63,427 nucleotides of DNA, filler included, from Candidatus Hydrogenedentota bacterium (GCA_040752395.1; 16 parts of 16 records of this genome joined end to end with filler, not necessarily neighbours in it), one strand, 5' to 3'. Counted from the whole stretch's first letter, positions 1-63,427 are shown. Notes: a model not told the origin generated them from the sequence alone. Translations and numbers: made by a program.

Positions 1-212
1 ACTCTAATAATTCGGGGTACAGGCTACGGGCTACGGACTACAGCCGGCTGGAGCCCCCTATGAAAAGTCTTGAGTCTTGAGTCTTGAGTCTCGAGTCCTG
101 TTTTGACTCACAACTTGCGACTTGTGACTCACGACTCTTTTCATACTTTGTGCCTCTTTTCCTCCCCTTTAAAGTGTCTCACGTTTCAGGGGAGCAGTAT
201 ATACCTTTATCA
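1..212 (-). repeat. Composite modular intergenic element (GGCACA, GAGTC hairpin, CCAGCCGGCTG hairpin, terminus cut by window edge)
   Basis: Reverse complement matches modules at 12410-12626 and 20883-21090; ends approximate. Confidence 0.9.
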
Positions 213-297
213 AAAAACAAGAAAAACCAGAACCGTCCCTGTTTTTCGTTTTTTCGTTTTTTCTTATCCCACCACCTCAATTGGCTGTCAAAATTTC

Positions 298-415
298 ATA
301 TAACGTTCCCAGCATAAAAGAAGCCCAGCCCTCGTTCAAGTCAGTGTTGGGTTTGGGTGACCCCGTGAGATGTCGCAGGCTATCTCACGTGGGAACCTTT
401 TATGCTGTGTTATAC
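298..415 (-). mobile_element. attC-like integron cassette recombination site
   Basis: Minus strand GTATAAC-acAGCATAAAAG...CTTTTATGCT-gggaac-GTTATAT, imperfect palindrome 20 nt downstream of the MTase stop; same arms as 41633-41720. Confidence 0.7.
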
Positions 416-435
416 GTTGTATGATGCAACAATTG

Positions 436-1359
436 CTAAAATAATCTTGTCTGTTTCCGCTCATCTTTCAACCTTTCTTCTGCTGTTTTACAATATTCTT
501 CCGAAATATCTATGCCGATATATTTTCTTCTTAACTTATATGCCACTAATGTTGTGGTCCCTACTCCATTGAATGGGTCCAGAACAACATCATCTTGATA
601 GCTAAATAATTTTAACAATCTCCTAACTAATTCCTCCGGGAACATTGCTGGATGGTTATATTTTTTCATATTAATTTCTGGTGCAATATCCCACTTCGCA
701 TAAACCCACTTCTTAAACTCGTCTCCTGTAATATCTATCTTGTCAGAATTTCCTTCTTTTTTATGTGACTCTTTACAAAATACCTCAATATATTCCCACG
801 TATATTTCATATAAGGCATGCTGGGACTTTTCCAACTACCCCAAGCTGTATATTTACAATTATAGTTGTGTTTTTCCCAGAGGATTTCTGCCTTCCAGAA
901 TAGTCCCAAGTCAAATAATTGCTTTGAAATAATATGGTGTGTAGGGATATAATCTGAAAATAGCGGTTGAATATTAACGCAGAATCTACCAGCTGGCTTC
1001 AGAACTCGAAAACATTCCATCCAGATTCTATTCAATTTATCAAAATAATCGTGCCAATATATAGCATCTTTGTTTTCATCATTTTTATATTCTAATCCAA
1101 AATTATACGGTGGTGAAGTTATAATGATATCAATAGAATTATCAGGAATATCCTTTAATATAATCTCACTATCTCCACAAATAATCCGGTTTACTAAATT
1201 TGATAGGTTTATTTCAGGGATTACTCCTTTTATTCTCTTTAGATGTTTTGTACCTCCCCGAATCTTTTCCTTCTTTTCCCTTTCTGAAACTTTTCTCTCT
1301 CGATTCAAAAGCCTGGAATCTGGATAGATTCTATCTTCTTTTTGATTGCTTTCACTCAT
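436..1359 (-). CDS. Site-specific DNA methyltransferase, beta-class N4/N6 family (probably m4C)
   Basis: TSPPY catalytic motif precedes HPAMFP and DPFNGVGTT SAM-binding motif. Confidence 0.9.
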   Translation of the reverse strand: MSESNQKEDRIYPDSRLLNRERKVSEREKKEKIRGGTKHLKRIKGVIPEINLSNLVNRIICGDSEIILKDIPDNSIDIIITSPPYNFGLEYKNDENKDAIYWHDYFDKLNRIWMECFRVLKPAGRFCVNIQPLFSDYIPTHHIISKQLFDLGLFWKAEILWEKHNYNCKYTAWGSWKSPSMPYMKYTWEYIEVFCKESHKKEGNSDKIDITGDEFKKWVYAKWDIAPEINMKKYNHPAMFPEELVRRLLKLFSYQDDVVLDPFNGVGTTTLVAYKLRRKYIGIDISEEYCKTAEERLKDERKQTRLF

Positions 1360-2015
1360 ATCATTTTACCCCTTTCTATTCTCTCCCTGACATTGTACCA
1401 ATCAGAACTTATATGTGAATTTACAAAACTAAATAAGTCCCATACAACGTCCTCATATATTGGGTTATCTCTGCTTTCTTTCCGTAGGACATAAATTTGG
1501 TCAATAGAAGAATATTTAGGATCAACATCCAAACTTACTTCGTAAGTTTCTGTAACAATTAAAAAGATACAATATGGGTTTCCTTTCTTAATCTTCTCTG
1601 CAGTGGGAACAGAACCTTCGTACATTGTTTTATCTAAATATGTTTTACACTCGATAGAAACTATCGGAACATAAATTGTATTTTCTTGCCAATTTTCATT
1701 GTTTGAAACTCTTGACTTCAGAATGACTTCCTTTGAAATAGAAAAATCTTGATTCTTTACATTAATCACAATGTTTGAACTTTCTTCAAATGCTTCAATA
1801 CTTGGCGGTGCAAAATATAGGTTAGTATATGCTTGTGTTCTTCCCCAATATATATGTTTATTTGCCAATTTTCCAATATCTTTGAATAAATAATACATAA
1901 ATTCTTCGATCACTGAAGAGTGTAATTGTGATTGCGAAGTAAAACCAAACTTATTCCCAGCCTCTTTTTTGAACTTGGGTTGGTCAATGAATGATTTGTA
2001 AAAGTGTCGCACCAT
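1356..2015 (-). CDS. Type II restriction endonuclease, Bpu10I-like family, possibly N-terminally truncated
   Basis: LHSSVIEEF, NQDF and IECKTYLDKTM PD-(D/E)xK motifs; overlaps the MTase start by 4 nt. Confidence 0.7.
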   Translation of the reverse strand: MVRHFYKSFIDQPKFKKEAGNKFGFTSQSQLHSSVIEEFMYYLFKDIGKLANKHIYWGRTQAYTNLYFAPPSIEAFEESSNIVINVKNQDFSISKEVILKSRVSNNENWQENTIYVPIVSIECKTYLDKTMYEGSVPTAEKIKKGNPYCIFLIVTETYEVSLDVDPKYSSIDQIYVLRKESRDNPIYEDVVWDLFSFVNSHISSDWYNVRERIERGKMI

Positions 2016-2291: not shown

Positions 2292-2519
2292 AGATGATAT
2301 GAAAAGAGTCGTGAGTCGCAAGTCGTGAGTCAAAACAGGACTCGAGACTCAAGACTCAAGACTCAAGACTTTTCAGCAGGCTTTTGGCTTTTGGCTCCAC
2401 CCGGCTGTAGTCCGTAGCCTGTAGCCTGTACCCCGTCCTGATACCTCTCACTTCTTCCGTTATCTTGCTTCTTGCTTCTATTTGATATTATTAGAGTTAC
2501 AACGTTTTTCAGAGGAGGA
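2292..2519 (+). repeat. Composite modular element upstream of efp
   Basis: GAGTC hairpin, GGCT hairpin, TTGCTTC arm, terminus 2487-2517. Confidence 0.9.
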
Positions 2520-3106: not shown

Positions 3107-3182
3107 CCACTTTGAAAAAAGTTGGAAATAAGAAGTAAGAAGTGAGAAGTATCAGGAAATACAAGATAGAGAGGTTTAAGTT

Positions 3183-4115
3183 ATGAAAATCAGAACTGTT
3201 TTCGGGATATTATTATCCCTCGCGCTACTATTTATAATATTTATTCAGCTTCTCGTAATACTTGGTATTTTTATAAGTAGACAGGATAGAGGTGTGCCTT
3301 TTATAACTTCTGTTGGTGTGATAGAGATTACGGGAACCATAATGTCATCTGACCAAACTTTAGGTCATCTTAAAAAGGCTGAAGAGAATAATTTTATTAA
3401 AGGGGTTATTTTAAAGATTAATTCGCGTGGTGGAGCTATCGGACCCTGTCAGGAGATATACGATAAACTAATTAATTATAAAAAGCCGGTTGTTATATAT
3501 ATTCAGGGATTAGGTGCAAGTGGGGGATACTATATAGCTTCATCCTGTGAAAACATAGTTGCGGAACGCGGTGCTATAACTGGCTCTATCGGTGTTTTGT
3601 TCCACTCGCTTTATTTTGAAGAAACAATGAAAAAGCTTGGCATCGGCGAAACCGTTGTTAAAAGTGGAAAGTTTAAAGATGCAGGCAGTATAACAAGACA
3701 TCTGACTGAAGAAGAATATAAATATTTTCAAGGCGTAATTGATGAATTATATCTACAGTTTGTTAAGGACATAGCGTTTGGTAGAAAACAAAGGTGGCTT
3801 AAGCTATATCCTGAATTAAAAGATTTAAAGGATGAAGAATATATTAATAGATTCAGAAAGATTTTCAAAGACGAGATCGATGGCAGGGTTTTTACAGGTG
3901 GAGAAGCATTTAATAAAGGGTTTATAGACAAGCTCGGCACATTTGATACTGCTATTGATTTAATGAAAGATATCCTTGATATAAAAGAAGACCCCAATTT
4001 AATATTTTATCGAAATTATGACCATGATAAATTCAAGTTTTTCGGTTTATCTTTATTTAATAATAAAATAACAAATCCTCTGCCCCCGGGATTTTATTAT
4101 TTAATGAGGTGGTAA
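3183..4115 (+). CDS. sppA: Signal peptide peptidase SppA (S49, 36K type)
   Basis: N-terminal TM, INSRGG, GASGGYY, TGSIGV, SGKFKD. Confidence 0.9.
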   Translation: MKIRTVFGILLSLALLFIIFIQLLVILGIFISRQDRGVPFITSVGVIEITGTIMSSDQTLGHLKKAEENNFIKGVILKINSRGGAIGPCQEIYDKLINYKKPVVIYIQGLGASGGYYIASSCENIVAERGAITGSIGVLFHSLYFEETMKKLGIGETVVKSGKFKDAGSITRHLTEEEYKYFQGVIDELYLQFVKDIAFGRKQRWLKLYPELKDLKDEEYINRFRKIFKDEIDGRVFTGGEAFNKGFIDKLGTFDTAIDLMKDILDIKEDPNLIFYRNYDHDKFKFFGLSLFNNKITNPLPPGFYYLMRW

Positions 4116-4120
4116 AATTT

Positions 4121-4456
4121 ATGCTTCAAAAATCAAAAAATTTTGCAATCGCGTTGTCCTGTATAATTAGTGGTCTCGGACAGATGTATCTCGGCTATAC
4201 TGTTAAAGGCTGTTTATTTATAATTCTTAATTTGGTCTCTTTACTTATTTCTTTAATTCTTATTTTTATTCCTTTGATTAATCTACTTGTTGGTAATAAG
4301 TTTAATATCATTATTTTTCAGACAGGTATCTTTCTAAATCTTGCTTTTCTTATTTTTTTGATGTATTCTATATACGATACTTATAGACTTACTAAAACCG
4401 AGATAGAAAAAAAAGAATCTAAAATAGGGATACTTTTTATAATTAATCTACTTCTT
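4121..4456 (+). CDS. Membrane protein, 3'-partial
   Basis: AIALSCIISGLGQMYLG motif and hydrophobic helices; runs into linker. Confidence 0.65.
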
Positions 4457-4556
4457 NNNNNNNNNNNNNNNNNNNNNNNNNNNNNNNNNNNNNNNNNNNN
4501 TTAATTAATTAANNNNNNNNNNNNNNNNNNNNNNNNNNNNNNNNNNNNNNNNNNNN

Positions 4557-4835
4557 AGAAGCAAGAAAACGTCTGAATCTCCTCTGAAAAACTTCGCAAC
4601 CCTAATAATTTGGGCTACAGGCTACGGACTACAGCCGGCTGGAGCCAAAAGCCCAGAGCCTGCTGAAAAGTCTTGAGTCCTGTTTTGACTCACGACTTGC
4701 GACTCACGACTCTTTTTATATCATCTTTAGTTTTTCATCCTTTGTGTAGAACGCAATAACCCAATAACCCAAGAACCCAATAGTGTAGAGCGCAAACCGC
4801 GCTCATGACAACTCCTATGAACACAGATGTTCATG
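4557..4835 (-). repeat. Composite modular element
   Basis: GTAG-REP, 9-mer array, GAGTC and GGCT hairpins, variant terminus 4579-4609. Confidence 0.9.
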
Positions 4836-4873: not shown

Positions 4874-5172
4874 TTTTATAGTCCTTTTTTATTAATAATT
4901 TTAATATCTGCAAGGTGTTTTAACTCACTTTAATAAAATTTTATACCCTAACGTCTATTTTCTTATACCTATCTTTACCAATAGGTTCATACCGCTGCCG
5001 CCACTACTAAATCCTTCGAAAAAGTGTAACGCCTCAGTCCTGGGTGGAGTTTCTTTATCTTGCTTCTTGCATCTTGCATCTTAATTCCACCTATAACCGA
5101 GGGAAAACGAAAAAGTCAATGGTGGTAGAAAAATTACTTGTAAAAAATTCGAAAAATAATAAAAATTAAGCT

Positions 5173-6566: not shown

Positions 6567-6708
6567 CTCCTCTGAAAAACGCTGTAACTATAATAATATC
6601 AAGTAGAAGCAAGAGGCAAGAAGCAAGAAGCAAGATAAACAAACATCTGGTTTTTCATACGTTGTGTAGAGCGCAAAAACCCAAAAACGCAATAACCCAA
6701 TAACCCAA
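6567..6708 (-). repeat. Composite modular element upstream of Gfo/Idh gene
   Basis: 9-mer array, REP half, (GCAAGAA)n, terminus GAGGAG 4 nt before ATG. Confidence 0.9.
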
Positions 6709-6808: not shown

Positions 6809-6975
6809 TAGCAAACAGTGTATATTTGGATACAGGGTTTGGATATTTTAACATAGCAGATACTGATCCTATATTTGAGGCTATAGGCAAAGATACCGGG
6901 ATAATAATGAATGTCGGTGAGGTAGATCAGGAGGACACTGGTCGGATACGGTTTGATGTTCGTTGTGGGGAATAA
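6809..6975 (+). CDS. 3' fragment of unknown CDS
   Basis: Open frame ANSVYLDTG...RFDVRCGE* from contig start. Confidence 0.5.
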
Positions 6976-6981
6976 AAGATT

Positions 6982-7035
6982 GAAAGATTGCAAGATTCAA
7001 AGGAAAGGCACAGAGGCACAGAGGCACAGAGGGGG
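6982..7035 (+). repeat. Short STR module (AGATTGA-like 7-mers and GGCACAGA 8-mers)
   Basis: Three GGCACAGA units immediately upstream of metW. Confidence 0.75.
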
Positions 7036-7744: not shown

Positions 7745-8838
<1,094 letters not shown>

Positions 8839-8871: not shown

Positions 8872-8912
8872 ACTTTCAAAGGCACAAAGGCACAGAGGCA
8901 CAAAGGCACAGA
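8872..8912 (+). repeat. GGCACA(G/A)A 8-mer module at contig end
   Basis: Four tandem units. Confidence 0.8.
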
Positions 8913-10205: not shown

Positions 10206-10370
10206 AGAGTCAAAGAGTCGCGAGTCGTGAGTCAAAACAGGACTCGAGACTCAAGACTTTTCAGCAGGCTTTTGGCTTTTGGCCCCAGCCGGCTGTAGTC
10301 CGTAGCCTGTCCTGATACTTCTCACTTCTTACTTCGTGAAATTATTAAAGTTACAGTATTTTTCGAAGGT
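10206..10370 (+). repeat. Composite modular element between radical SAM and E1-alpha genes
   Basis: GAGTC and GGCT hairpins, variant terminus ending CGAAGGT before ATG. Confidence 0.9.
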
Positions 10371-12407: not shown

Positions 12408-12409
12408 AT

Positions 12410-12626
12410 CTGATACTTCTTACTTCTTACTTTTTTCGAAGGAGTCAACATGAGCGCGGGTTGCGCTCTACACAATATATGAAAAACTAAAGATGATATG
12501 AAAAGAGTCGTGAGTCGTGAGTCAAAACAGGACTCGAGACTCAAGACTTTTCATAGGGGGCTCCAGCCGGCTGTAGTCCGTAGCCTGTACCCCGAATTAT
12601 TAGAGTTACAGCGTTTTTCAGAGGAG
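12410..12626 (+). repeat. Composite modular element between truB and ribF
   Basis: REP, hub, GAGTC and GGCT hairpins, terminus 12596-12626. Confidence 0.92.
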
Positions 12627-12631
12627 AATAG

Positions 12632-13250: not shown

Positions 13251-13351
13251 NNNNNNNNNNNNNNNNNNNNNNNNNNNNNNNNNNNNNNNNNNNNTTAATT
13301 AATTAANNNNNNNNNNNNNNNNNNNNNNNNNNNNNNNNNNNNNNNNNNNNA

Positions 13352-13523: not shown

Positions 13524-13537
13524 AGCTGATAGAAAAA

Positions 13538-13625
13538 ACTTTGTGCCTCTGTCACTTTGTGCCTTTGTGCCTTTGTGCCTCTTTTCCTCCCCTTTAAAGT
13601 GTCTCATGTTTCAGGGGGCAGTATA
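13538..13625 (-). repeat. Composite element fragment
   Basis: TTTGTGCC array plus TTTCCTCCCCTTTAAAGTGTCTCA.GTTTCAGGGG, near identical to 146-210. Confidence 0.85.
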
Positions 13626-13725
13626 ATTTTCTTCATTTAAGTCTAACGTCTGGTCTCTATGGTCTACTGTCTGAATTGCAATAAATCGCTTGCAGTTTTA
13701 TCTATTTAATGTTATTCATCTCATT

Positions 13726-14631: not shown

Positions 14632-14974
14632 ATAACGAAAGAAGCAAGAAGCAAGATAACGGAAAAGAAAGATAACGAAAGAGGCACAGAGGCACAAAGT
14701 ATGAAAAAGATAGGAGTTAGGAGTTCGTAATAATAGATACGAGCTCCGAACTCCGAACTTTTTCAGAGGAGTCGTCATGAGCGCGGGTTGCGCTCTACAC
14801 AAGGTATGAAAAACTAAAGATGATATGTTGGCTTCAGGCTACGGGCTTTTGTCTCCAGCCGGCTGTAGTCCGTAGCCTGTGGCCTGTAGCCTGTCCTGAT
14901 ACCTCTCACTTCTTCCGTTATCTTGCTTCTTGCTTCTACTTGATATCATTAGAGTTACAATGTTTTTAGAGGAG
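14632..14974 (+). repeat. Composite modular element, most complete copy
   Basis: GCAAGAA arm, GGCACA, GGAGTT hairpin, REP, hub, GGCT hairpin, TTCTTGC arm, terminus. Confidence 0.92.
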
Positions 14975-20882: not shown

Positions 20883-21090
20883 CCTCCTCTGAAAAACGCT
20901 GTAACTCTAATAATTCGGGGTACAGGCTACAGGCTACGGACTACAGCCGGCTGGAGCCAAAAGCCAAAAGCCTGCTGAAAAGTCTTGAGTCTCGAGTCCT
21001 GTTTTGACTCACGACTTGCAACTTGTGACTCTTTTCATATCATCTTTAGTTTTTCATCCTTACCCCTATCTTTTTCATACTTTGTAGAAC
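20883..21090 (-). repeat. Composite modular element between glnB and dapB
   Basis: Three ATGAAAA hubs, GAGTC and GGCT hairpins, terminus GAGGAGG 4 nt before ATG. Confidence 0.92.
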
Positions 21091-21091
21091 G

Positions 21092-26502: not shown

Positions 26503-26579
26503 ATGATATAATAGAAGCAAGATATTCCGGTTTTAAAATTCTTTACAAAATCTGTTATTTTTTGTTTTAATTATCTCGT

Positions 26580-26747
26580 TTTCATAAGCATCTTTTGCGC
26601 TCTACACTATTGGGTTCTTGGGTTCTTGCGTTATTGGGTTATTGCGTTTTTGCGCTCTACACAATATATGAAAAAGATAGGAGTTAGGAGTTAGAAGTTT
26701 GTAATAATAGCTCCGAACTCCGAACTTCGAAGTTCTTTCAAAGGGGG
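26580..26747 (+). repeat. Composite modular element between glnE and asd
   Basis: REP halves, 9-mer array, hub, GGAGTT hairpin, TTTCAAAGGGGG. Confidence 0.9.
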
Positions 26748-26759: not shown

Positions 26760-27842
26760 ATGGATAAATTAAGAGTTGGTGTTATTGGTGCCACAGGTAT
26801 GGTTGGCCAGAGGTTTGTTACCCTGCTTGAAAACCATCCCTGGTTTGATACTGTATTAGTTGCTGCAAGTGCTTCATCAGCGGGTAAAACCTATGAAGAT
26901 GCGGTAGCTGGCCGCTGGACCATAAATAAACCAATCCCATCCCTTATTGCTAAACTTATTGTTTATAACGCACAGGAGATAGCTGATATCGCTCAAAAGG
27001 TCGATTTTGTATTCTGTGCCGTAGATATGTCTAAAGACGAAATTTTAAAATTAGAAGAAAATTATGCTAAAGCAGAGGTACCAGTGGTATCTAATAACTC
27101 GGCACATCGTGGAACTATGGATGTCCCTATGATGATACCTGAGATTAATAGTTCTCATACTGCAATTATAAATAAACAAAAAGAACGTCTTGGAACAAAA
27201 AGAGGGTTTATTGCGGTAAAACCGAACTGTTCTTTACAGAGTTATACGCCAGCGATACATCCATTGATTGACTTTGAACCAACGGATATTATCGTCGCTA
27301 CTTATCAAGCGATTTCAGGTGCAGGTAAAACTTTTGAGACCTGGGCTGAAATGATAGATAATGTTATCCCTTTTATAAAAGGTGAGGAAGAGAAAAGTGA
27401 ACAGGAGCCTATGAAGATCTGGGGTAGAATTGAGGGAGACCGAATCATAAACGCTACTTCACCAAAAATATCAGCTCAATGCATCCGTGTCCCTGTTACT
27501 GATGGCCATCTTGCCGCAGTTTCCGTAAAATTTAAGAAGAAACCAAAAAAAGAAGATATAATTTCAAGATGGAAGTCTTTTGAAGGCGAACCCCAAAAAT
27601 TAAATCTCCCTTTAGCTCCAAAACCGTTCTTAACATATTTCGAGGAAGATATCAGACCACAAACAAAACTTGATAGAGATATCAGCAACGGCATGGGTAT
27701 AGCTATCGGACGATTAAGAGAAGATAAAATCTTCGATTATAGGTTTGTATGTCTATCTCATAATACTATTCGGGGGGCAGCAGGTGGTGCTATACTTATT
27801 GCTGAACTTTTATTCAAACAGGGATACCTTGGTAGAAGATAG
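26760..27842 (+). CDS. asd: Aspartate-semialdehyde dehydrogenase
   Basis: [36 protein letters not shown]. Confidence 0.95.
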
Positions 27843-27930
27843 AAGACAGAATACAGAAGACAGAAAATAAGAAATGAGAAATAAGAAGTAAAAAGTGAAA
27901 AGTATCAGAAAAATGGATGGAAAGCAAGAT
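27834..27930 (+). repeat. Heptamer STR tract (AGAAGAC / AGAAATA / AGAAGTA)
   Basis: Degenerate 7-nt periodic array after asd. Confidence 0.75.
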
Positions 27931-32196: not shown

Positions 32197-32430
32197 CCTC
32201 CTCTGAAAAACATTGTAACTCTAATGATATCAAGTAGAAGCAAGAAGCAAGAAAACGTCTGAATCTCCTCTGAAAAACTTCGCAACCCTAATAATTTGGG
32301 CTACAGGCTACGGACTACAGCCGGCTGGAGCCCGAAGCCCGGAGCCTGAAGCCAACATATCATCTTTAGTTTTTCATGCTTTGTGTAGAGCACAAAAACC
32401 CAAGAACCCAATAGTGTAGAGCGCAAACCG
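32197..32430 (-). repeat. Composite modular element with two termini
   Basis: Terminus 32197-32228 plus variant 32264-32294 identical to 4579-4609. Confidence 0.9.
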
Positions 32431-32530: not shown

Positions 32531-32710
32531 AGTCTTGAGTCTTGAGTCTCGAGTCCTGTTTTGACTCACGACTTGCGACTTGTGACTCACGACTCTTTTT
32601 ATATCATCTTTAGTTTTTCATACCTTGTGCCTCTGTGCCTCTGTGCCTCTTTCGTTATCTTTCTTTTCCGTTATCTTGCTTCTTGCTTCTTGCCTCTTGC
32701 TTCTAATATA
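32531..32710 (-). repeat. Composite modular element downstream of S8 protease
   Basis: Reverse complement of the GCAAGAA, GGCACA, hub and GAGTC modules. Confidence 0.9.
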
Positions 32711-34879: not shown

Positions 34880-35176
34880 GAAGGAGTACTCATGAGCGCG
34901 GTTTGCGCTCTACACTATTGGGTTCTTGGGTTATTGCGTTTTTGCGCTCTACACAAAGCATGAAAAACTAAAGATGATATGAAAAGAGTCGTGAGTCAAA
35001 ACAGGACTCGAGACTCAAGACTCAAGACTTTTCATAGGGAGCTCCAGCCGGCTGTAGTCCGTAGCCTCTAGCCTGTCCTGATACCTCTCACTTCTTCCGT
35101 TATCTTGCTTCTTGCCTCTTGCTTCTACTTGATATCATTTTGATATCATTAGAGTTACAAAATTTTTCAGAGGAGG
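34880..35176 (+). repeat. Composite modular element upstream of DUF4198 gene
   Basis: REP, 9-mers, hub, GAGTC, GGCT, TTCTTGC arm, terminus. Confidence 0.92.
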
Positions 35177-38295: not shown

Positions 38296-38384
38296 TTAAT
38301 TTATATGAAACAATCTTTTTTGTAAAATAGAGTTGCATTTTTTTTAAAAGTGAATATACTTATTATTAAAGACTTATTTTTATT

Positions 38385-38544
38385 TTATCATAGGAGTTGT
38401 CATGAGCGCGGGTTGCGCTCTACACAACGTATGAAAAACTAAAGATGATATGTTGGCTTTGGGCTTTTGGCTCCAGCCGGCTGTAGTCCGTAGCCTGTAG
38501 CCTGTACCCCGAATTATTAGAGTTACAGCGTTTTTCAGAGGAGG
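38385..38544 (+). repeat. Composite modular element upstream of ATG 38549 (gene cut by linker)
   Basis: REP, hub, GGCT hairpin, terminus GAGGAGG-TTTT-ATG. Confidence 0.9.
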
Positions 38545-40280: not shown

Positions 40281-40511
40281 CTTTTTCATAGGAGTCGTCA
40301 TGAGCGCGGTTTGCGGTCTACACTATTGGGTTCTTGGGTTCTTGGGTTCTTGCGTTATTGGGTTATTGCGTTTTTGCGCTCTACACAATATATGAAAAAC
40401 TAAAGATGATATGTTGGCTTCAGGCTCCGGGCTTCGGGCTCCAGCCGGCTGTAGTCCGTAGGCCGTAGCCTGTACCCCGAATTATTAGAGTTACAGCGTT
40501 TTTCGAAGGAG
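40281..40511 (+). repeat. Composite modular element
   Basis: REP, long 9-mer array, hub, GGCT hairpin, terminus ending CGAAGGAG. Confidence 0.9.
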
Positions 40512-42736: not shown

Positions 42737-42765
42737 GTACAAAGGTATAAACTAAATGAAAAGAT

Positions 42766-42943
42766 AGTGAAGACTCAAGACTTTTCAGCAGGCTTCGGGC
42801 TCCAGCGGACTGTAGTCCGTAGCCCGTAGCCTGAAGCCAACATATCATCCTTAGTTTTTCATACTTTGTGCCTTTGTGCCTCTGTGCCTCTTGTTTCTTG
42901 CTTCTACTTGATATCATTAGAGTTACAATGTTTTTCAGAGGGG
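42766..42943 (+). repeat. Composite modular element upstream of pilC with inverted internal modules
   Basis: GGCT hairpin followed by reverse-complement hub and TTTGTGCC modules, then terminus. Confidence 0.9.
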
Positions 42944-44169: not shown

Positions 44170-44536
44170 TTAGAAGACAGGAGGGGAAGGCACAAAGTTA
44201 AATTAAAAATTAAAAATTAGAAGTAGTGATGGTCACAAGACCCGAAGTATAGGCGGGTTTACCCATCCATAGACAGGCACAGAGGCACAGAGGTAAGAAG
44301 TAAGATATTTGAAATTGAAGATTGGAAATTGGAGATTGCAAAATGAAATCAGTTTATGAAGTTAAAGAGTCGAGAGTCGAGAGTCATCATGAGCGCTTTT
44401 GCGCTCTACACTATTGCGTTCTTGGGTTCTTGGGTTCTTGCGTTTTTGCGCTCTACACAAAGCATGAAAAACTAAAGATGATATAAAAAGAGTCTTGAGT
44501 CTTGAGTCTCGAGTCCTGTTTTGACTCACGACTTGC
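44170..44536 (+). repeat. STR-rich composite element downstream of pilC
   Basis: Several 7- and 8-mer tracts, REP, 9-mers, hub, inverted GAGTC module. Confidence 0.85.
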
Positions 44537-46388: not shown

Positions 46389-46490
46389 CCTCCTCTGAAA
46401 AACGCTGTAACTCTAATAATTCGGGCCACGGGCTACGGACTACAGCCGGCTGGAGCAAAAAGCCAAAAGCCAAAAGCCTGCTGAAAAGTC
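46389..46490 (-). repeat. Composite modular element upstream of epimerase
   Basis: GGCT hairpin and terminus. Confidence 0.9.
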
Positions 46491-50520: not shown

Positions 50521-50543
50521 CGATGTCCTATACCCCTTTATCG

Positions 50544-50745
50544 CCCCCCCTGAAAAACATTCTAACTCTAATAATTGGGGCTACAGGCTGCGGACTACAG
50601 CCGGCTGGAGCCTGAAGCCAACGTCCTTTAAAAAATTCAGAATGTGGAATGCTGAAATCTGTGGTCATCAGCCAGAATTTAGAACGCAATAACCCAAGAA
50701 CCCAATAGTGTAGAGCGCAAACTGCGCTCATGACTACTCCTGTCT
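50544..50745 (-). repeat. Composite modular element between two STAS genes
   Basis: REP, 9-mers, GGCT half hairpin, terminus. Confidence 0.88.
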
Positions 50746-50752
50746 CCTGATA

Positions 50753-55346: not shown

Positions 55347-55390
55347 AAAACTCACCTTCTTCTTGCTTCTTTCGTTATCTTGCTTCTATA

Positions 55391-57471: not shown

Positions 57472-57550
57472 CTCCTCTGAAAAACGTTGTAACTCTAATA
57501 ATTCGGGGTACAGGCTACGGACTACGGACTACAGCCGGCCGTAGCCTGAA
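57472..57550 (-). repeat. Minimal composite element overlapping the 3' end of the upstream gene
   Basis: GGCT hairpin and terminus GAGGAG 4 nt before ATG. Confidence 0.9.
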
Positions 57551-58151
57551 ACCCACATACCATCTTTTGTAATCTTTTATAATCAATTTCAGTATCAAAA
57601 TCAAGTAATATAAAATTGTCATTGACTTCTAATTCAATTATCTTTTTTTTTAACATACTGAACATCACTCGTAACCCTTTATTTTTAAAATCATCGGTGT
57701 GGATAATATCTTCTAAATATTTTTGCGGTATAAGAATAGGATGTCCTTTTCTACCTTGATATACAGGTACAATTATTTTATCTTTTAGCGAGTGTTCTTT
57801 TAGACTTTTAATTGTTTCGGTTTTAACTAAAGGTACATCAACCGGATGAATAAATATTCTATCAATACCCGTCTCCTTTATGAGATTGAACCCGGTTTCT
57901 ATACTTGAATGCATCCCCCTTTGTGGATTTTTATTTATTACAAATTTATATCTCTTTCTTTTTATATAATTAATAACTCTCTTATCATCCCTTATAACAA
58001 TTACGGTATCTATTCCAAGACTTTTATAAGTTTCATCAACTTTATCAACAAATTTCTGATTCTTATTTAAGGTGAGGATCGGTTTTGGAAACCCGTTCAT
58101 TCGTGAAGAGAAACCAGCTGCAAGTATTATCGCTATCTCATTTATTGGCAT
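57522..58151 (-). CDS. MobA/MocA-like NTP transferase
   Basis: ILAAGFSSRM..PK, GM.SS, PVDVP, G.KGHP, DFDT..DY. Confidence 0.88.
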   Translation of the reverse strand: MPINEIAIILAAGFSSRMNGFPKPILTLNKNQKFVDKVDETYKSLGIDTVIVIRDDKRVINYIKRKRYKFVINKNPQRGMHSSIETGFNLIKETGIDRIFIHPVDVPLVKTETIKSLKEHSLKDKIIVPVYQGRKGHPILIPQKYLEDIIHTDDFKNKGLRVMFSMLKKKIIELEVNDNFILLDFDTEIDYKRLQKMVCGFQATAGCSP

Positions 58152-60261
58152 CTTTAACTATTTTAAGCACGTCTTCAAAAATATATTCCATTGATTCTAT
58201 CATTTTAGATTTTTCAAATTTATACGTGAACACTATTTCTTTACCTTTATATTCAGCAATTACACCAAGTAAACACCATAATTCTTTTATATTTGCTATT
58301 AATCTCATTATTATATCAGCTTTATCTATTGTATCAACATAATCAAATTTTTCATAATATATATTTTTTATTGTCTTTTTATAAGTATTTCTACAAACAT
58401 CATTAAACATCTCCCAGCCTGGTGCTCGGGTGATAAATTCAATGTTATGTAAATAAACAAAAATGGGCCTGAAAGGGTCGAACTTCCTTTCCTTTTCTTC
58501 AATAAACTCTGATCTATTTTCGCTAATTAATCCGATGGATTCTTCTAAGATACCAGCTAATTCCTCAGCTTTTTCAATAAGTATATCTAAATCAATCTCA
58601 CCACTCAAAACATTCTGTCTCTCGGTCTTTATAATTTCAGGTACTTCTTCTCCCATCTCCTGTCTTCTACCCCCTGTCTCTTCAACTCTTAAACTCCTCA
58701 ACTCCCCAACTCCTAACTCCCGGGTTCTGGGTTCTTGTTTCTCCATAATAGTATAAGCTACCAGCGAATGCTCTAACCCATAAACATCATACCCTTTCAT
58801 CTTATTTAACGGGTCTTTTTTCCATCGTTTATCTACTATAAAATGATATAAATATTTACCAGGCTGCATTGCAACCTTTTTTGTAAAAACACCTTCTTTG
58901 CTTTTATCCATTTTTAATTGCCATGGGTCCCAGAAAACAAAGTCACCGGTTAAATAAACTTCAGAAGCATCCTTATCATAGTAATAAAATACAACACCAT
59001 CATCTTCAAATCTTAAACTCTCGTATACAAATACCTCAGAGCCTATTTTTTCTTTTTCTTTGTGGGTACCTATTACTTTATCAGATTTATCCTCTTTAAT
59101 AAACAAATCAGGCATATCAATTTTTTCAGGTCTTTTCTCTTTTTCTTCAACAATCACTTCGATCTCGGGTCTTTTTTTTTCTGATGCAGCCTCCTCTTTC
59201 ATTACAATTTCCTGTTCTTTTGTCTGTTTTTCCTGCTCTTTGACTTTATTTGATTCAACCAGGATAATTTCTTCTTCTTTCTTTACATCTTTTTCTTTTT
59301 TAACTTCTTTTTTTTCTACAGTAATGACTGGTTCTTCTTTGTTTTTAGCTATTACTTTGACTTCAGGTTTTTCTAAGTGTTTTTCTTGTTCTAATTCTTT
59401 TTTTGGCTCTACTTTAATGACTTTTTCTTCTTGTTGTTTTACAGCAACCTGTATTGGCACTGTTTCCTGTGTCTTTATTTCTTGCTTTTTGCTTTTTGCT
59501 TCTTGCTTCTCCTCCTGATAATCACCAATCAGTTTATCTATCTCTTTTTCAAACTTTTCTTTTAACCCACCACTCCTATCTTCATCGATTATCTTAATCA
59601 CACTTACATAACCATGTTCAATATCTTTTTCAGTCTGCATAGTTGCCGGGTCAGGTATTTTAACGCCATCCACATTAAATTGATATTTATATACACCTGG
59701 TTTTAACTCGAGTTTAGTCTCCCATAATCCATTATCTTTTGACATCAATGGTATCCCCGGGAAAGCCCAGTTATTAAAATCACCTGATACATAAACCTTC
59801 TCAGCACTGCCTGCAAAGATTGAAAAATTTATTTGAGATTTGCCTTTTTCATCTTTTTTAACTATGATACTTCTTGTTACATCTTCAGGTAGTTTTAAAA
59901 CAAGTCTGGAACAATATCCTCTATCGGTGTCATTTATCACTTCATCACTCGATGGGTCAGGAAGCATTACGCCATCAACATTAAATTTATAAAGATACGT
60001 ACCTTCAGGAAGCCTGAGAGATGCTCTCCACTCCCCATCTCCCATCTTTGTCATATCAGTTCCCGGTTCAAGCCAGGAATTAAAATCTCCGATAATATAA
60101 ACCTTTTCAGCGCCACCTGCTGGAATCCCAAATTCTACCTCTATCTCGCCCCGTTCAAAAACCCTCTTCAGTTTAGTATAACCAGAAATACTATTAGCTA
60201 CTGATAATATATAAATAATCACTATTAAAAATTTATAGTATTTAGTCTTTATGCATCTCAT
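58138..60261 (-). CDS. Secreted protein with three AMPK-type glycogen-binding (CBM48) domains
   Basis: Three V...GDF..W...G.W/F...L/M.PG.Y.Y.F.VD...DP repeats; Glu/Lys-rich linker. Confidence 0.8.
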   Translation of the reverse strand: MRCIKTKYYKFLIVIIYILSVANSISGYTKLKRVFERGEIEVEFGIPAGGAEKVYIIGDFNSWLEPGTDMTKMGDGEWRASLRLPEGTYLYKFNVDGVMLPDPSSDEVINDTDRGYCSRLVLKLPEDVTRSIIVKKDEKGKSQINFSIFAGSAEKVYVSGDFNNWAFPGIPLMSKDNGLWETKLELKPGVYKYQFNVDGVKIPDPATMQTEKDIEHGYVSVIKIIDEDRSGGLKEKFEKEIDKLIGDYQEEKQEAKSKKQEIKTQETVPIQVAVKQQEEKVIKVEPKKELEQEKHLEKPEVKVIAKNKEEPVITVEKKEVKKEKDVKKEEEIILVESNKVKEQEKQTKEQEIVMKEEAASEKKRPEIEVIVEEKEKRPEKIDMPDLFIKEDKSDKVIGTHKEKEKIGSEVFVYESLRFEDDGVVFYYYDKDASEVYLTGDFVFWDPWQLKMDKSKEGVFTKKVAMQPGKYLYHFIVDKRWKKDPLNKMKGYDVYGLEHSLVAYTIMEKQEPRTRELGVGELRSLRVEETGGRRQEMGEEVPEIIKTERQNVLSGEIDLDILIEKAEELAGILEESIGLISENRSEFIEEKERKFDPFRPIFVYLHNIEFITRAPGWEMFNDVCRNTYKKTIKNIYYEKFDYVDTIDKADIIMRLIANIKELWCLLGVIAEYKGKEIVFTYKFEKSKMIESMEYIFEDVLKIVKDANK

Positions 60262-62066: not shown

Positions 62067-62320
62067 GGTCTATAAATCCATAATTTTTTTTATATTTAAT
62101 TCAATAATCCTGTTTAAGTCAAGCTTTAATTTAACAGGTTTCTGAAAAACCTTATTTTTTTAAAACAGGTCTTTTGACCTTCACTACATTATATTGAAAT
62201 TACGAAAAATAAAAAATGTAGTAAGCATCTTTAGATGCGTCTTTAAGAAAAGGTGTTTATATGAGCATAAATTTAATTGATTTGATCATAAGTCAAAATT
62301 CCCTCTAATCATAATTTCGC

Positions 62321-63313
62321 CTAACCTTGTCTTAAATAAGCAGCTGCTTCCTCAGGTGGTGTGGGATTAATAAAAAAACCAGTGCCAAGTTCAAAGCCTG
62401 CTTCAATAGTAAGTTTGGGTATTATCTCAAAATGAAAATGATATGATTCAGAAAACTGGGTGCGCAAAGGTGAGGTGTGCAAAACAAGATTATAAGGCGA
62501 GTTTTCAAGAACTCTATAAATTCTTGCAAGGGTTTCTCTCAAAACCTCAGCTAATCCGCTTATCTCTTTTTTACCTATTATATCAAATGAATGAAAATGC
62601 TTTCTTGGTAGCACCCAGCTTTCAAATGGAAATCTTGAGGCAAACGGACAAAAAGATACTGCTTCCTCATTCATAGCAATTATTCTTTTAACGCCCCTTT
62701 CTTCCTCATCAATCATATCACAATAAACACATCTCTCTTTATAATCATAATGATATTTTGCTCCATATATCTCTTCTTTTATACGTTTCGGGATAACAGG
62801 TGTCCCTATAAGTTGAGAATGTGAATGTTCAAGTAAACCGCCAGCTGCTCTACCGTGATTTTTAAAAATCTGAACATATTTTAATCTTTCATCTTTGCTT
62901 AAAGCCCTCAATCTATTATGAAAAGCCCATAAAACTTCTTCTATTGATTGGGAGTTCATAAGAGAGAGTATCTGATTGTGGTCAGATGTTTCTACAATAA
63001 TCTCATGACACCCAAACCCGGCTATCTTATCATACATCCCCTCGCCCTTTCGTATAGCATCAATATCAGTCAGTAAAATAGGAAATTTATTCGGTACAAC
63101 TCTAACCCACCAGCCTGGCTCATTTGGTTTGGTACCTGGCTTACGAAAACCAAGTACCTCAGGAGGCGTATTCACTTCATTCCCCTCGCACAATGGACAG
63201 AAACCTCCTTTTCTTGTTTTATCTTCGCTACCGAAGTCAGATGGTCGTTTGCCACGTTCAGTGGCTATAATAACCCATCTGCTTGTAACAGGGTCTTTTC
63301 TCCATTCAGGCAT
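62321..63313 (-). CDS. galT: Galactose-1-phosphate uridylyltransferase
   Basis: RKDP...WVI.A.ER..RP, CPLC.GNE, EHSHSQ; start moved to ATG 63313. Confidence 0.92.
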   Translation of the reverse strand: MPEWRKDPVTSRWVIIATERGKRPSDFGSEDKTRKGGFCPLCEGNEVNTPPEVLGFRKPGTKPNEPGWWVRVVPNKFPILLTDIDAIRKGEGMYDKIAGFGCHEIIVETSDHNQILSLMNSQSIEEVLWAFHNRLRALSKDERLKYVQIFKNHGRAAGGLLEHSHSQLIGTPVIPKRIKEEIYGAKYHYDYKERCVYCDMIDEEERGVKRIIAMNEEAVSFCPFASRFPFESWVLPRKHFHSFDIIGKKEISGLAEVLRETLARIYRVLENSPYNLVLHTSPLRTQFSESYHFHFEIIPKLTIEAGFELGTGFFINPTPPEEAAAYLRQG

Positions 63314-63321
63314 AGTTACAT

Positions 63322-63427
63322 CTCCTCTGGAAAACGCTGTAACTCTAATAATATCAAGTAGAAGCAAGAAGCAAGATAAACAAACATCTGGTTTTTCATC
63401 CTTTGTGTAGAGCGCAAAAACGCAATA
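63322..63427 (-). repeat. Composite modular element upstream of galT
   Basis: Near identical to 6567-6680. Confidence 0.9.

Follow-up and report, generated by a model that had tools for sequence, protein, structure and literature searches.

Oriented Composite Intergenic Repeats of a Candidatus Hydrogenedentota Bacterium, an Unusual Variant of the Mosaic Repeats of Other Bacteria

The intergenic spacers of a Candidatus Hydrogenedentota bacterium harbor repeats of a mosaic type that is already known from other bacteria, in an unusual variant. Within the analyzed stretch of 63,427 nt (in the following the window), these elements are strictly oriented toward the downstream gene and occupy the entire stop-to-start spacer between co-directional genes. 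We consider it somewhat more probable than not that they represent a lineage-specific, REP/BIME/BOX-like composite non-coding repeat family, which was diversified by ordinary processes. As a mosaic repeat the family is unusually legible, with about ten sharply bounded modules, one order, and near-identical cores, whereby the 7- and 8-nt units in the hairpin arms would record slippage events. Its polarity is strict, and the element supplies the putative ribosome-binding site of the housekeeping genes efp, dapB, and ribF.

The Repeats Are Composed of About Ten Recurrent Modules

As a pseudomolecule, the window unites 16 contigs (seven of ~2.0-2.2 kb, seven of ~1.85-2.0 kb, and two of ~17 kb), which are separated by 100-nt linkers of the form N44-TTAATTAATTAA-N44, so that elements adjacent in the window are not adjacent in the genome. 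The first-pass annotation had proposed about ten recurrent modules, distributed over some 24 elements. All of these modules were recovered, each with about zero expected matches in dinucleotide shuffles. The window contains 19 matches to (GCAAGAA)2 at ≤1 mismatch, nine exact matches to the GAGTC-loop-GACTC core, 14 matches to the E core (CCAGCCGGCTG..GTAGCC) at ≤2 mismatches, 15 matches to the terminus (module G) at ≤3 mismatches, and 11 matches to module C (ATGAAAAACTAAAGATGATAT) at ≤2 mismatches. Copy-to-copy identity of the cores is near 100%, with exact matches in 10 of 11 cases for C and in 10 of 14 for the E core. Tandem arrays identified by TRF are likewise enriched, with 50 non-overlapping period-7 arrays vs 2.0 per shuffle (25-fold) and 20 period-8 arrays vs 2.3 per shuffle (9-fold). 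The proposed number of elements agrees with 20 main loci, which carry at least two canonical modules each, plus about eight single-array loci (Table 1).

The optional modules at the upstream side are F' (a GCAAGAA array), H' (a GGCACAGA array), and I (a hairpin). A is a GTAG-tagged REP-like hairpin, B an octamer array that closes with a second GCGCTCTACAC, D and E are hairpins, F consists of pyrimidine heptamers, and G is a 31-nt terminus. The 11-nt GCGCTCTACAC flanks B on both sides as direct repeats. The hairpins are composed of 7-nt or 8-nt tandem units, whereby 4-5-nt cores pair across the arms and the 2-3-nt spacers mismatch systematically. In E, the right arm consists of tandemly repeated heptamers that contain GTAG, and D and I each have the basal stem ATGAAAAG...CTTTTCAT. 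The motif of module A, GAGCGC-N4-5-GCGCTC, is present at seven sites and in two further mutated or truncated copies, all of them intergenic. On the antisense strand, module A reads as GTAG followed by a hairpin with a 6-bp stem; here, the antisense of ..GCGCTCTACAC is GTGTAG-AGCGC.., and the GTAG abuts or overlaps the first stem base.

Table 1. Repeat loci of the window with position, strand, module content, and genetic context.
Locus	Position	Strand	Modules and context	Remarks
e01	1..162	-	(window start) truncated G - E - D - hub - H'	
J module beside e01	160-205			
e02	2292..2517	+	(contig start) partial C - D - E - F - G, before efp	GGAG 19 nt upstream of ATG at 2537; 6-codon uORF overlaps efp start
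e27	3125..3151	+	inverted F-core heptamers (GAAGTAA/GAAGTGA); efp/S49 peptidase gene spacer	
e03	4557..4815	-	A - B - C - D - E - variant terminus Gv - F heptamers (contig end)	
e04	5057..5082	+	lone (TTGCTTC/TTGCATC) heptamer array	
e05	6567..6708	-	(contig end) B - hub - CCAGATGTTTGTTTATC - F x4 - G, before GFO/IDH/MocA oxidoreductase	GGAG-to-ATG 4 nt
e06	6975..7032	+	octamer arrays (AAAGATTG)n, (AGGCACAG)n, immediately 5' of metW	
e07	8877..8912	+	H' array (CAAAGGCA)n downstream of tgt	truncated by contig end
e08	10207..10369	+	D - E - F core - variant G (TTTTTCGAAGGTG), before E1 dehydrogenase gene	begins 15 nt past stop of radical-SAM gene
e09	12408..12626	+	F core variant - TTTTTCGAAGGAG - A - C - D - E - G	occupies truB-ribF spacer; GGAG-to-TTG start 5 nt
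e10	13539..13625	+	H octamer array + J module (CCTCCCCTTTAAAGTGTCTCAYGTTTCAGGGG..GCAGTATAAT), 5' of GH3 gene	
e11	14632..14974	+	F' - H' - I - TTTTTCAGAGGAG - A - C - E - F - G	fullest copy
e13	20884..21091	-	degenerate B end - I remnant - C - D - E - G	occupies P-II to dapB spacer; GGAG-to-ATG 5 nt
e14	26503..26745	+	F' remnant - unique sequence - B - I - degenerate terminus; glnE-asd spacer	
e28	27834..27910	+	purine-rich heptamer arrays (AGAAGAC, AAATAAG, inverted F-core-like), between asd and next gene	
e15	32198..32430	-	(contig end) partial A - B - C - E - Gv - F - G	tandem pair of termini before FecR/fn3 protein; GGAG-to-ATG 11 nt
e16	32531..32710	-	F' - H' - C - D (contig end)	begins 2-3 nt past subtilase stop codon
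e17	34880..35175	+	A - B - C - D - E - F - G, before DUF4198 gene	complete canonical copy; GGAG-to-ATG 9 nt
e18	38384..38543	+	A - C - E - G, 3' of tRNA-Asp	GGAG-to-ATG 5 nt; contig ends 8 codons on
e19	40282..40511	+	TTTTTCATAGGAG - A - B - C - E - G variant, after aldehyde dehydrogenase gene	longest B, 63 nt
e20	42756..42943	+	D remnant - E - inverted C - H - F - G, before pilC/T2SS-F gene	GGGG 7 nt upstream of ATG
e21	44275..44536	+	H' - inverted F core - other heptamers - A-like - B - C - inverted D (contig end)	
e22	46390..46490	-	(contig end) D end - E - G, before NAD-dependent epimerase	GGAG-to-ATG 8 nt
e23	50545..50740	-	A - partial B - ~60 nt unique sequence - short E - degenerate G	flanked by two STAS-domain genes
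e24	55356..55390	-	F' heptamers only	equals the 35-nt archease/rtcB spacer
e25	57472..57568	-	degenerate C - short E - G, before MptE-like gene	GGAG-to-ATG 4 nt; overlaps 3' end of upstream MobA-like gene
e26	63322..63427	-	(window end) B - hub - CCAGATGTTTGTTTATC - F - G, before GalT-like gene	GGAG-to-ATG 8 nt

The suggestion of a modular family with common junction sequences proved to be genuine, and the multiple exits from the ATGAAAA/TTTTCA hubs hold as well, based on module paths and adjacencies that were coded by hand from the annotated copies. The hubs are A-tracts (ATGAAAAA) and T-tracts (TTTTTCA) bordering the hairpins. ATGAAAA(A) is succeeded by C (10 cases), D (five plus one degenerate), I (two plus one degenerate), or CCAGATG.. 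(two), and TTTT(T)CA by E (nine), the AGGAG-led A module (three), B (one), or H (one).

The repeats explain the heavy fragmentation of the assembly. In such a highly fragmented record, in which 10 of the 32 ends of contigs or window fall within modules and in which elements of 200-350 nt are built of modules identical between loci, the module combinations of otherwise real repeats might be chimeric paths of a short-read assembler through the repeat graph. We regard such an artefact as very improbable. Each junction is shorter than a read length and recurs in several independent contigs, so that the DNA must really contain these adjacencies. Furthermore, contigs that cross an element join expected gene pairs, namely truB-ribF (e09) and archease-rtcB (e24), both of which are widely conserved pairings, and the differences in unit number are smaller than any plausible read length.

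The Modules Follow One Order With Optional Blocks

An alignment with MAFFT of 10 copies, which are the most complete among the 20 main loci, yielded the common architecture (F'-H'-I)-A-B-C-D-E-(F)-G, whereby blocks are present or absent. The aligned copies consist of shared blocks that are divided by block indels only, with 49 invariant columns. One module order is followed by 74 of the 82 adjacent pairs, and colinearity is broken in eight, one of them being the I module directly after B in e14. Inverted modules are D in e21 and C in e20. The idea that each copy is a path through a small graph thus holds for the shared hubs with several exits but not for free paths. The optional blocks assort almost independently, as the presence or absence of B, D, and F gives six of the eight possible combinations in eight scorable copies. 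Concerning the claimed differences in module content between copies, the presence or absence of blocks is real, whereas a part of the differences is accounted for by truncation, since nine of the 20 main loci are cut.

The number of units varies within modules, too. B has lengths of 31, 39, 39, 47, 55, and 63 nt, and these 8-nt steps disrupt any reading frame. In the left arm of D, the units follow one order with in-register 7-nt deletions, and the unit counts of the two arms are uncorrelated (module D, e.g. 5:4.7, 4:1.7, 2:3.7). The junctions from C to E2, from D to E0, and from E to G are the same in several copies and are not simple direct-repeat deletions. Such recurrent junctions need either subfamily spread together with exchange or a site-specific process.

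The first-pass annotation assumed an active, enzyme-driven assembly. In this case, a strand-transfer enzyme (HUH/RAYT-type or other) or template-jumping synthesis would cut and join the modules at the ATGAAAA/TTTTCA junctions, which would go along with the sharp junctions that are identical between copies, with the nearly independent assortment of B, D, and F, with the GTAG tag of antisense module A, and with the GTAG-containing heptamers of the E right arm. However, free cut-and-join would not keep a nearly fixed order, and the REP hallmark is found in module A only. Fold-back or templated synthesis is at odds with hairpin arms that are not copies of each other, pair only in their short cores, and vary independently in unit number. 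A Pfam scan revealed no transposase, RAYT, or reverse transcriptase among the 49 window ORFs scanned, in accordance with the earlier statement that the window encodes no candidate enzyme. Overall, enzyme-driven assembly seems quite unlikely to us, and ordinary processes suffice. Equally doubtful is that a dedicated enzyme (e.g. a RAYT-like enzyme of the HUH type with the GTAG-tagged A/E units as substrates) cuts and rejoins the modules at the junctions of the A- and T-tracts, or that these are inserted one by one at Shine-Dalgarno sequences (SDs). If this were true, the repeats would constitute a system that writes combinatorial SD-bearing leaders before hundreds of unrelated genes, and thus a mobile, programmable translation-initiation region and not a passive repeat.

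The Elements Face Gene Starts and Carry the SD of the Downstream Gene

In all 15 copies with following sequence, G ends in AGAGGAG just upstream of a start codon. These 15 G termini comprise 14 of the 15 terminus matches and the variant at 10343-10369; the left-out match, 4579, meets a contig end. All of them face an ORF, whereby the terminus at 32265 does so only via a second terminus. The distance from GGAG to the start is 4-11 nt in 11 of 14 scored copies and 19-24 nt in the other three, and the variant G before the E1 gene is located at 4 nt. The genes downstream of G are unrelated housekeeping genes (efp, ribF, dapB, pilC, and others). Wherever the upstream flank is known (13 loci), the element is situated between co-directional genes, and no A-G modules are present in the two divergent and three convergent spacers of the window. 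A uORF that ends -12 to +3 nt from the start occurs in five of the 15 copies. Since AGAGGAG in G serves as the SD of the gene that follows, the mRNA would have to include at least the G end, and judging from the SD placement the element would be an intercistronic spacer or a 5' leader. In simple scans of the elements, neither sigma-70-type promoters nor intrinsic terminators exceeded the level of shuffles.

With respect to structure, the fullest copy e11 forms a nested palindrome whose outer inverted repeats match perfectly over 24 nt, and its predicted RNA fold has -141 kcal/mol at a z of -10.8 (antisense z -11.4). The canonical copy e17 barely exceeds shuffles (z -1.5 and -1.7). A strand bias of hairpin folding that would indicate an RNA function was not observed, as the sense strand folds better in five of nine D copies and in eight of 12 E copies.

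The strict orientation to start codons and the near-invariance of G and C could also mean that the element is a conserved cis-regulatory leader for a global post-transcriptional regulator, which is kept by selection and is not mobile DNA; G and the hairpins upstream of it would then provide the binding sites or structures. For the TAACTGA heptamers of Beggiatoaceae, which are also oriented to start codons (PMC4679880), such a role has been proposed. Furthermore, the SD is more often paired in predictions for copies with F (mean 0.76, eight copies) than for those without F (mean 0.52, seven copies); however, SD pairing does not differ from that in shuffled-upstream controls. The downstream genes are functionally unrelated, and the free variation in module content and unit numbers is hard to fit to a single regulatory structure. 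Moreover, near-100% identity that extends over >200 nt between unrelated loci is what recent copying or conversion typically leaves behind, and not convergent selection. A selected leader of this kind is hence an unlikely explanation.

A similar degree of doubt applies to a nested insertion of several independent miniature elements (e.g. A..G, D, F), each targeting and duplicating AGGAG or the hub. AGGAG is located 5 nt before ATGAGCGC at seven of eight intact A left ends, and the element itself ends in AGGAG, so that the motif at both ends might be a 5-bp target duplication. A complete TTTTTC-AGGAG terminus is located directly 5' of A in e09, e11, and e19, which look as if A..G had entered a previously present element at its SD. 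Also the two tandem termini of e15 and the basal stem common to D and I would make sense in this context. On the other hand, the duplication of an invariant target, as the AGGAG at both A..G ends in seven of eight copies might be, is indistinguishable from repeat consensus, and the left AGGAG is preceded by a hub-like TTTTCAT in three of the five copies that start with A. Moreover, the adjoining E arm also differs between copies with and without D, and thus D is not a clean insertion.

Ordinary Processes Could Account for the Diversity

In the favored reading of a lineage-specific composite family, several processes would have diversified the copies. Replication slippage, in register, would change the lengths of the 7- and 8-nt arrays, and short direct repeats would allow for deletion or duplication between them, for instance in the case of B, which is bracketed by two GCGCTCTACAC. 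Quasi-palindromic modules may flip, and gene conversion or recombination between copies could take place via the invariant cores (C, E core, hubs); by such exchange the optional blocks can assort. The pattern requires no more than ordinary slippage, direct-repeat deletion, and copy-to-copy exchange. The first spread of the family presumably occurred via a trans-acting transposase located elsewhere in the genome.

The element density in the two 17-kb contigs is ~1 per 4 kb. If this density holds genome-wide, a large share of the operon-internal spacers and translation-initiation regions would be repeat-derived, and the bacterium would be a good system in which to study the tuning of mRNA stability and translation, the rate of diversification, and the spreading enzyme, if there is any.

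Comparison With Known Repeats

REP/BIME, BOX, and STRR mosaic intergenic repeats have been known for decades, whereby the cyanobacterial STRR are heptamer tandem repeats. The repeats described here had no match in Rfam, in plasmid or phage collections, in two metagenome scans, or in a full-text search for six motif strings. As in the REP/BIME of Enterobacteria, they are abundant extragenic palindromes in mosaic clusters within intergenic spacers, which are probably transcribed in the present case as they are there. GTAG-tagged short palindromes are the hallmark of RAYT-associated REPs and represent the substrates linked to RAYTs (PMC3733652), and module A is likewise a short palindrome with GTAG at one end. 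Unlike REPs, however, only one of the about ten modules, A, is REP-like, and the elements carry the SD of the downstream gene, which distinguishes them from REP/BIME. In contrast to BIMEs, different hairpins occur in fixed order and orientation instead of one alternating palindromic unit, and in contrast to REPINs, the A and B-end copies of GCGCTCTACAC are direct repeats and not inverted pairs.

The BOX elements of Streptococcus pneumoniae and S. suis are organized as boxA-(boxB)n-boxC with boxD/E/F variants, and slippage or unequal exchange has been invoked for the differences between their copies (PMC3049150). The likeness concerns the architecture and comprises end modules, variable tandem internal modules, the wide size range, and the stem-loop fold; a BOX-type assignment is by analogy only, with G as the fixed end and with B (31-63 nt) and the arm arrays as the variable part. 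In contrast to BOX, many more module types are present, and the hairpin arms themselves are 7- or 8-nt arrays. BOX elements are over-represented between convergent genes (PMC3049150, Table 1), whereas the present elements were found only between co-directional genes, face the downstream start, and include the SD.

The TAACTGA repeats of Beggiatoaceae and Cyanobacteria are also intergenic, abundant 7-nt arrays that face the start codons of unrelated, including essential, genes (PMC4679880). Most of these sets are without a canonical SD, which is present here. Tandem TAACTGA gave zero matches to two units at ≤1 mismatch in the window; the period-7 enrichment involves other units. A further difference is that the arrays form both hairpin arms inside a larger composite element.

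With MITEs such as Nezha, Correia, and ERIC, the family has in common the small size, the high copy number, the strong structure, and the location in spacers that, here, we infer to be transcribed, and e11 has perfect 24-nt terminal inverted repeats. Different from MITEs, one or both outer inverted repeats are missing in most copies; in e17 and e20, for example, the right arm F is present and the left arm F' is absent. No target duplication flanks e11. The MIRUs of mycobacteria are intercistronic, are oriented as the flanking genes inside operons, and are described as containing small ORFs whose stop and start overlap the flanking genes. The present elements are intercistronic and oriented as the flanking genes as well, but a uORF ending near the start is found in the above-mentioned minority of copies only. 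Finally, the reused or 'mobile' promoters of Nijveen et al. (2012) are reported to be highly similar upstream regions before non-homologous genes of one genome. The highly similar regions upstream of non-homologous genes are common to both cases; no promoter is evident in the present elements, in which the shared part is instead a structured repeat together with the SD.

Recurrent Modules Within the Assembled Contigs

The modules that had been listed from the sequence by eye turned out to be real and recurrent, as all of them were found in the window, where dinucleotide shuffles gave an expectation of about zero. The heptamer dimer (GCAAGAA)2 occurred 19 times at ≤1 mismatch, the core of the D hairpin showed nine exact matches, the E core 14 matches at ≤2 mismatches (10 of them exact), module C 11 matches (10 exact), and the terminus G 15 matches at ≤3 mismatches. 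By using Tandem Repeats Finder, 50 non-overlapping period-7 arrays were detected compared to 2.0 in block shuffles, and 20 period-8 arrays compared to 2.3. Overall, 20 main loci that carry two or more canonical modules were distinguished from about eight single-array loci, and 12-mers that are present at least three times cover approximately 5.4 kb of 62.1 kb.

The window comprises 16 contigs (seven of 2,016–2,191 nt, one of 16,964 nt, seven of 1,854–2,001 nt, and one of 16,837 nt), which are separated by 15 identical linkers of 100 nt each (N44-TTAATTAATTAA-N44; 2192-2291, 4457-4556, and 13 further sites); one further gap of 10 N is located at 7790-7799. The contig sizes descend near-monotonically apart from the two contigs of ~17 kb in between, in the manner of a list sorted by name. 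Thus, the contigs were concatenated from a list, and neighbors in the window are not neighbors in the genome. ORFs called across linkers (e.g., 42612-42917, 46543-47670, and 4109-4504) are partly artefacts. Ten of the 32 contig or window ends lie inside modules and 9 of the 20 main loci are cut off, so that part of the apparent variety is truncation. The repeat enrichment of the 2-kb contigs results from the assembly having broken at repeats; in the two 17-kb contigs the element density is about 1 per 4 kb. Given the breaks of the assembly at these repeats, misassembly of the module mosaics themselves would be conceivable, but it is unlikely. Every junction is shorter than a read and recurs in independent contigs, and element-crossing contigs join truB to ribF and archease to rtcB, pairs that belong together. 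Both pairings are widely conserved.

The window has a G + C content of 35% and encodes ordinary housekeeping functions (efp, tgt, truB, ribF, dapB, asd, glnE, P-II, rtcB together with archease, pilC, pilD, and others). In a search of 5.8 billion proteins, the top non-self match of DapB reached only 55% identity, which implies an organism without a close relative in the collections. Named DapB matches (48–54% identity) belong mostly to Thermodesulfovibrio and other Nitrospirota.

A Single Module Order With Optional Blocks

Each copy was read in the direction of the gene after it (“sense”). Read in this way, 74 of the 82 adjacencies follow a single module order (module strings coded by hand), which is given in the table. 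Ten of the 20 main loci, picked as the most complete, were aligned with MAFFT and matched as shared blocks with block-sized gaps and 49 invariant columns. The exceptions to the order are B followed by I in the element loci e13 and e14, an inverted C after E in e20, an inverted D in e21, an F core ahead of A in e09, and two tandem termini in e15. Blocks B, D, and F, which are optional, showed six of the eight possible combinations among the eight copies scorable for all three. Thus, the description of the elements as combinatorial is fair, whereas the suggested paths through a small module graph reduce to presence or absence along one line. The junction sequences between modules behave as had been proposed: C, D, I, or CCAGATG.. 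come after the A-tract hub ATGAAAA(A), and the T-tract hub TTTT(T)CA leads into E (GCAGGCT.. or TAGGGGGCTCC), AGGAG plus A, or H.

Modules of the element in sense order and further features of the window
Feature	Position (strand)	Sequence or content	Place or setting
Module F' (optional)		(GAAGCAA)n GATAACGG..	First
Module H' (optional)		(GCACAGAG)n	After F'
Hub		ATGAAAAA	After H', again after B
Module I hairpin (optional)		(TAGGAGT)n..(CTCCGAA)n, then TTTTTCAGAGGAG	After first hub
Module A		TCGTCATGAGCGCGGnTTGCGCTCTACAC	After I
Module B (optional)		(TATTGGGT/TCTTGGGT/TATTGCGT)n, ending with second GCGCTCTACAC	After A
Module C		CTAAAGATGATATG	After second ATGAAAAA hub
Module D hairpin (optional)		(GAGTCGT)n GAGTC-AAAACAG-GACTC (GA/AA-GACTC)n, then TTTTCA	After C
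Module E hairpin		(GGCTnnn)n CCAGCCGGCTG (TAGTCCG, TAGCCTG)n	After D
Module F (optional)		CCTGATACCTCTCACTTCTTCCGTTATC (TTGCTTC)n TACTTGATATC	After E
Module G		ATTATTAGAGTTACAnnnTTTTTCAGAGGAG	Last
Element e11	14632-14974 (+)	Nested palindrome, perfect 24-nt outer inverted repeats	Fullest copy
Stop/start chain	12500-12635 (+)	Overlapping ATGA x3, then TTGA	e09; A mini-ORF to 45-codon uORF to ribF start
Module J	160-205 (+); 13580-13625 (+)	CCTCCCCTTTAAAGTGTCTCAYGTTTCAGGGGRGCAGTATA(T/A)A	After H octamers
Small repeat	213-263 (+); 23488-23515 (+)	GAACCGTCCCTGTTTTTCG	Two copies
Inverted repeat	310-407 (+)	18 nt, 83% complementary	Encloses 62 nt with GTGAGAT..ATCTCAC hairpin
Restriction-modification pair	436-2015 (-)	N6/N4 DNA methylase (PF01555) and Bpu10I-like endonuclease (PF09549)	
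F'-like array	59479-59510 (-)	(GCAAGAA)4.6	Within ORF 58138-60261, CBM48/AMPK1_CBM protein
rtcB RNA ligase gene	53910-55849 (-)	35-nt spacer of F' heptamers	Directly downstream of archease
Two paralogous STAS-domain (anti-sigma-factor-antagonist-like) genes	50173-51109 (-)	Tandem	e23 between them

The hairpin arms are tandem arrays of 7-nt units, in which pairing is limited to cores of 4–5 nt (GAGTC/GACTC, GGCT/AGCC, and GGAGT/ACTCC) and the spacers of 2–3 nt are systematically mismatched. The left:right unit numbers of D (5:4.7, 4:4.7, 4:1.7, 4:2.7, 3:2.7, and 2:3.7) reveal that the two arms vary independently, and the left arm reads as in-register 7-nt losses from GAGTCGT GAGTCAC AAGTCGC AAGTCGT GAGTC. 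Module B measures 31, 39, 39, 47, 55, or 63 nt. The predicted fold of e11 has -141 kcal/mol (z -10.8; opposite strand z -11.4), and that of e17, a canonical copy without F', is barely above shuffles (z -1.5 and -1.7).

Orientation Towards the Downstream Gene

Module G, which closes with AGAGGAG, is always the gene-proximal end of the element. All 15 G termini that have sequence after them face an ORF; this set consists of 14 of the 15 matches plus a variant ahead of the E1 dehydrogenase gene, and the remaining match, at 4579, meets a contig end. The match at 32265 (e15) reaches its ORF only via a further, downstream terminus. GGAG precedes the start codon by 4–11 nt in 11 of the 14 scored copies and by 19–24 nt in the other three; for the variant, the distance amounts to 4 nt. 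Similarity between copies ends directly after GGAG, and the upstream sequences of element-free genes are unrelated. In all cases seen, the gene downstream receives its ribosome-binding site from the terminal module. This polarity is absent from the description in the first-pass annotation. All 13 loci with a known upstream flank are located between co-directional genes, often starting 2–15 nt past the upstream stop codon, and none of the window's divergent (two) or convergent (three) spacers contains an A–G module.

Since the Shine-Dalgarno (SD) sequences of essential genes (efp, dapB, ribF) lie within the repeat, at least its G end must be part of the mRNA and in use. Sigma-70 promoters and intrinsic terminators are not more frequent in the elements than in shuffles. 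Given the exclusively co-directional placement and the lack of a conspicuous promoter-like site, the simplest reading of the sequence is that the element would constitute an intercistronic spacer or 5' leader transcribed from upstream. The polarity would also fit a conserved regulatory leader. However, predicted pairing of the SD is the same as in shuffled controls, hairpin stability has no RNA-strand bias, and the module content varies freely ahead of unrelated genes. SD sequestration was rejected on the same pairing result. A leader peptide or translational coupling was likewise rejected, as B changes in steps of 8 nt and a uORF ends at the start codon in only 5 of 15 copies; coding by an A–B mini-ORF was discarded on these grounds as well. 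The stop/start chain of e09 is not reproduced in other copies and was treated as a coincidence. Readings as integron attC site, CRISPR, or sigma-54 promoter were judged by eye to misfit the gene context and the motif spacing.

Origin of the Differences Between Copies

Undirected processes would account for the differences seen between copies. In-register slippage within the arrays would yield the 7- and 8-nt steps and the independently varying arms; blocks might be lost or gained between direct repeats, B being bracketed by two 11-nt GCGCTCTACAC copies; quasi-palindromes such as D and C could flip; and exchange between copies through the invariant cores would let the optional blocks assort. 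The junctions C to E2, D to E0, and E to G are not direct-repeat deletions, yet they are identical in many copies.

The first-pass annotation had instead suggested an active enzyme-driven process such as HUH/RAYT strand transfer or template-jumping synthesis, considered here as a cutting and joining of modules. The junctions are indeed sharp and common to the copies; in antisense, module A is a short palindrome tagged with GTAG, and a series of GTAG-containing heptamers makes up the right arm of E. REPs linked to RAYT transposases are GTAG-tagged palindromes, as described in PMC3733652. However, the REP-like appearance is limited to one module, the module order is nearly fixed, and, as already stated by that annotation, the window encodes no candidate enzyme (no transposase, RAYT, or reverse transcriptase among the 49 ORFs scanned). 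Moreover, the mismatches in the spacers and the inequality of the arms speak against one arm having been synthesized from the other, as in fold-back or template jumping. Enzyme-driven assembly is unproven and not required, although it retains a low probability.

It could also be that very small elements targeting AGGAG or the hubs have inserted into each other. AGGAG lies 5 nt ahead of ATGAGCGC at 7 of 8 intact A left ends and the unit also ends in AGGAG; furthermore, e09, e11, and e19 each have a complete terminus ahead of A, and e15 carries two termini. A duplicated invariant target is, however, indistinguishable from the repeat consensus. The arrangement TTTTTC-AGGAG-N5-ATG also occurs inside elements, ahead of A (four cases). 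Most likely, the family consists of composite extragenic repeats similar in kind to REP, BIME, and BOX, which fill stop-to-start spacers in a gene-oriented manner. The original observation is real and well described, with corrections for the concatenated contigs, the colinearity, and the polarity.

Further Features of the Window

Module J, which is missing from the initial module list, forms a CCCCT..AGGGG hairpin, ends in a TATAAT-like hexamer, and could be a promoter module. Flanking the first GAACCGTCCCTGTTTTTCG copy are two arrays, one of an A-rich 9-mer and the other (TTTTTCGT)n, which could pair; the second copy lies in a divergent spacer upstream of glnE. The 18-nt inverted repeat sits in a 220-nt gene-free stretch downstream of J, gave no Rfam match at E ≤ 1, and is possibly a small RNA or the terminator of the methylase gene. 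The F'-like array reads in frame as ..EEKQEAKSKKQEIK.. within the coding region, and coding tandem repeats of 16 and 18 nt occur nearby (58678-58721, 59270-59411). The archease–rtcB spacer has a purine-rich end at the position expected for an SD sequence. The true start of rtcB may be the ATG three codons past the annotated GTG; the Atlas protein begins at residue 4. A GAF-GGDEF gene diverges from the STAS-domain pair.

Comparison With Known Repeat Systems

The combination of modules had not been recognized initially, and it matched no family in Rfam, metagenome, viral, plasmid, phage, or literature searches. At gathering score, Rfam yielded two tRNAs only; relaxing the threshold to E ≤ 1 added a single microRNA-hairpin match by chance in 1-440 and nothing in 12380-15000. 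The E core and the G terminus had no match in the metagenome scans, and module C none in viral contigs. With the distant setting of blastn, e17 matched no plasmid and e11 no phage. The 17-nt D core was found in contigs of other genomes at at least 14 loci from unrelated organisms, with one match each. Among the matches listed, the E core and G terminus are absent from all of these loci, and one of them has ordinary sequence on either side; these are chance matches. In the full-text literature searched, four of the six motif strings did not occur and the other two gave only primer or sequence coincidences in five unrelated papers, and nothing relevant was found on repeats of Nitrospirae/Thermodesulfovibrio. 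A complete genome showing a dedicated enzyme or SD-targeted insertion would raise interest in the family considerably.

Comparable repeats include MIRUs, ERIC, Correia elements, the STRR of cyanobacteria, and the small dispersed repeats known from Nostoc. The family belongs to none of the BIME, REPIN, TAACTGA, and MIRU groups. Its copies lack the alternating orientation of BIMEs and the inverted doublets of REPINs, and in place of the overlapping small ORFs of MIRUs, a uORF ends near the start in 5 of 15 window copies. As regards MITE traits, the outer inverted repeats are perfect in e11, whereas e17 and e20 lack the left arm, and AGGAG at both A..G ends would be a candidate target duplication that is not separable from the repeat consensus. 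REP/BIME and GTAG REPs (PMC3733652) as well as “promoter reuse” (PMC3575422) are among the closest described systems. The TAACTGA heptamer repeats of Beggiatoaceae are oriented to the start codons of unrelated genes, mostly without a ribosome-binding site, and not arranged as hairpins (PMC4679880); no TAACTGA tandem was detected in the window. BOX elements are described in PMC3049150 as boxA-(boxB)n-boxC of 67–637 bp, for which S. suis has additional module types, and as over-represented between convergent genes (Table 1 therein), with the variation in boxB number attributed to slippage, unequal crossover, or excision. By analogy, the present family would work like a BOX/BIME-type mosaic repeat. 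It is distinctive in its combination of about ten sharply bounded modules in fixed order, hairpin arms made of 7- or 8-nt arrays, and a terminal module that supplies the ribosome-binding site.
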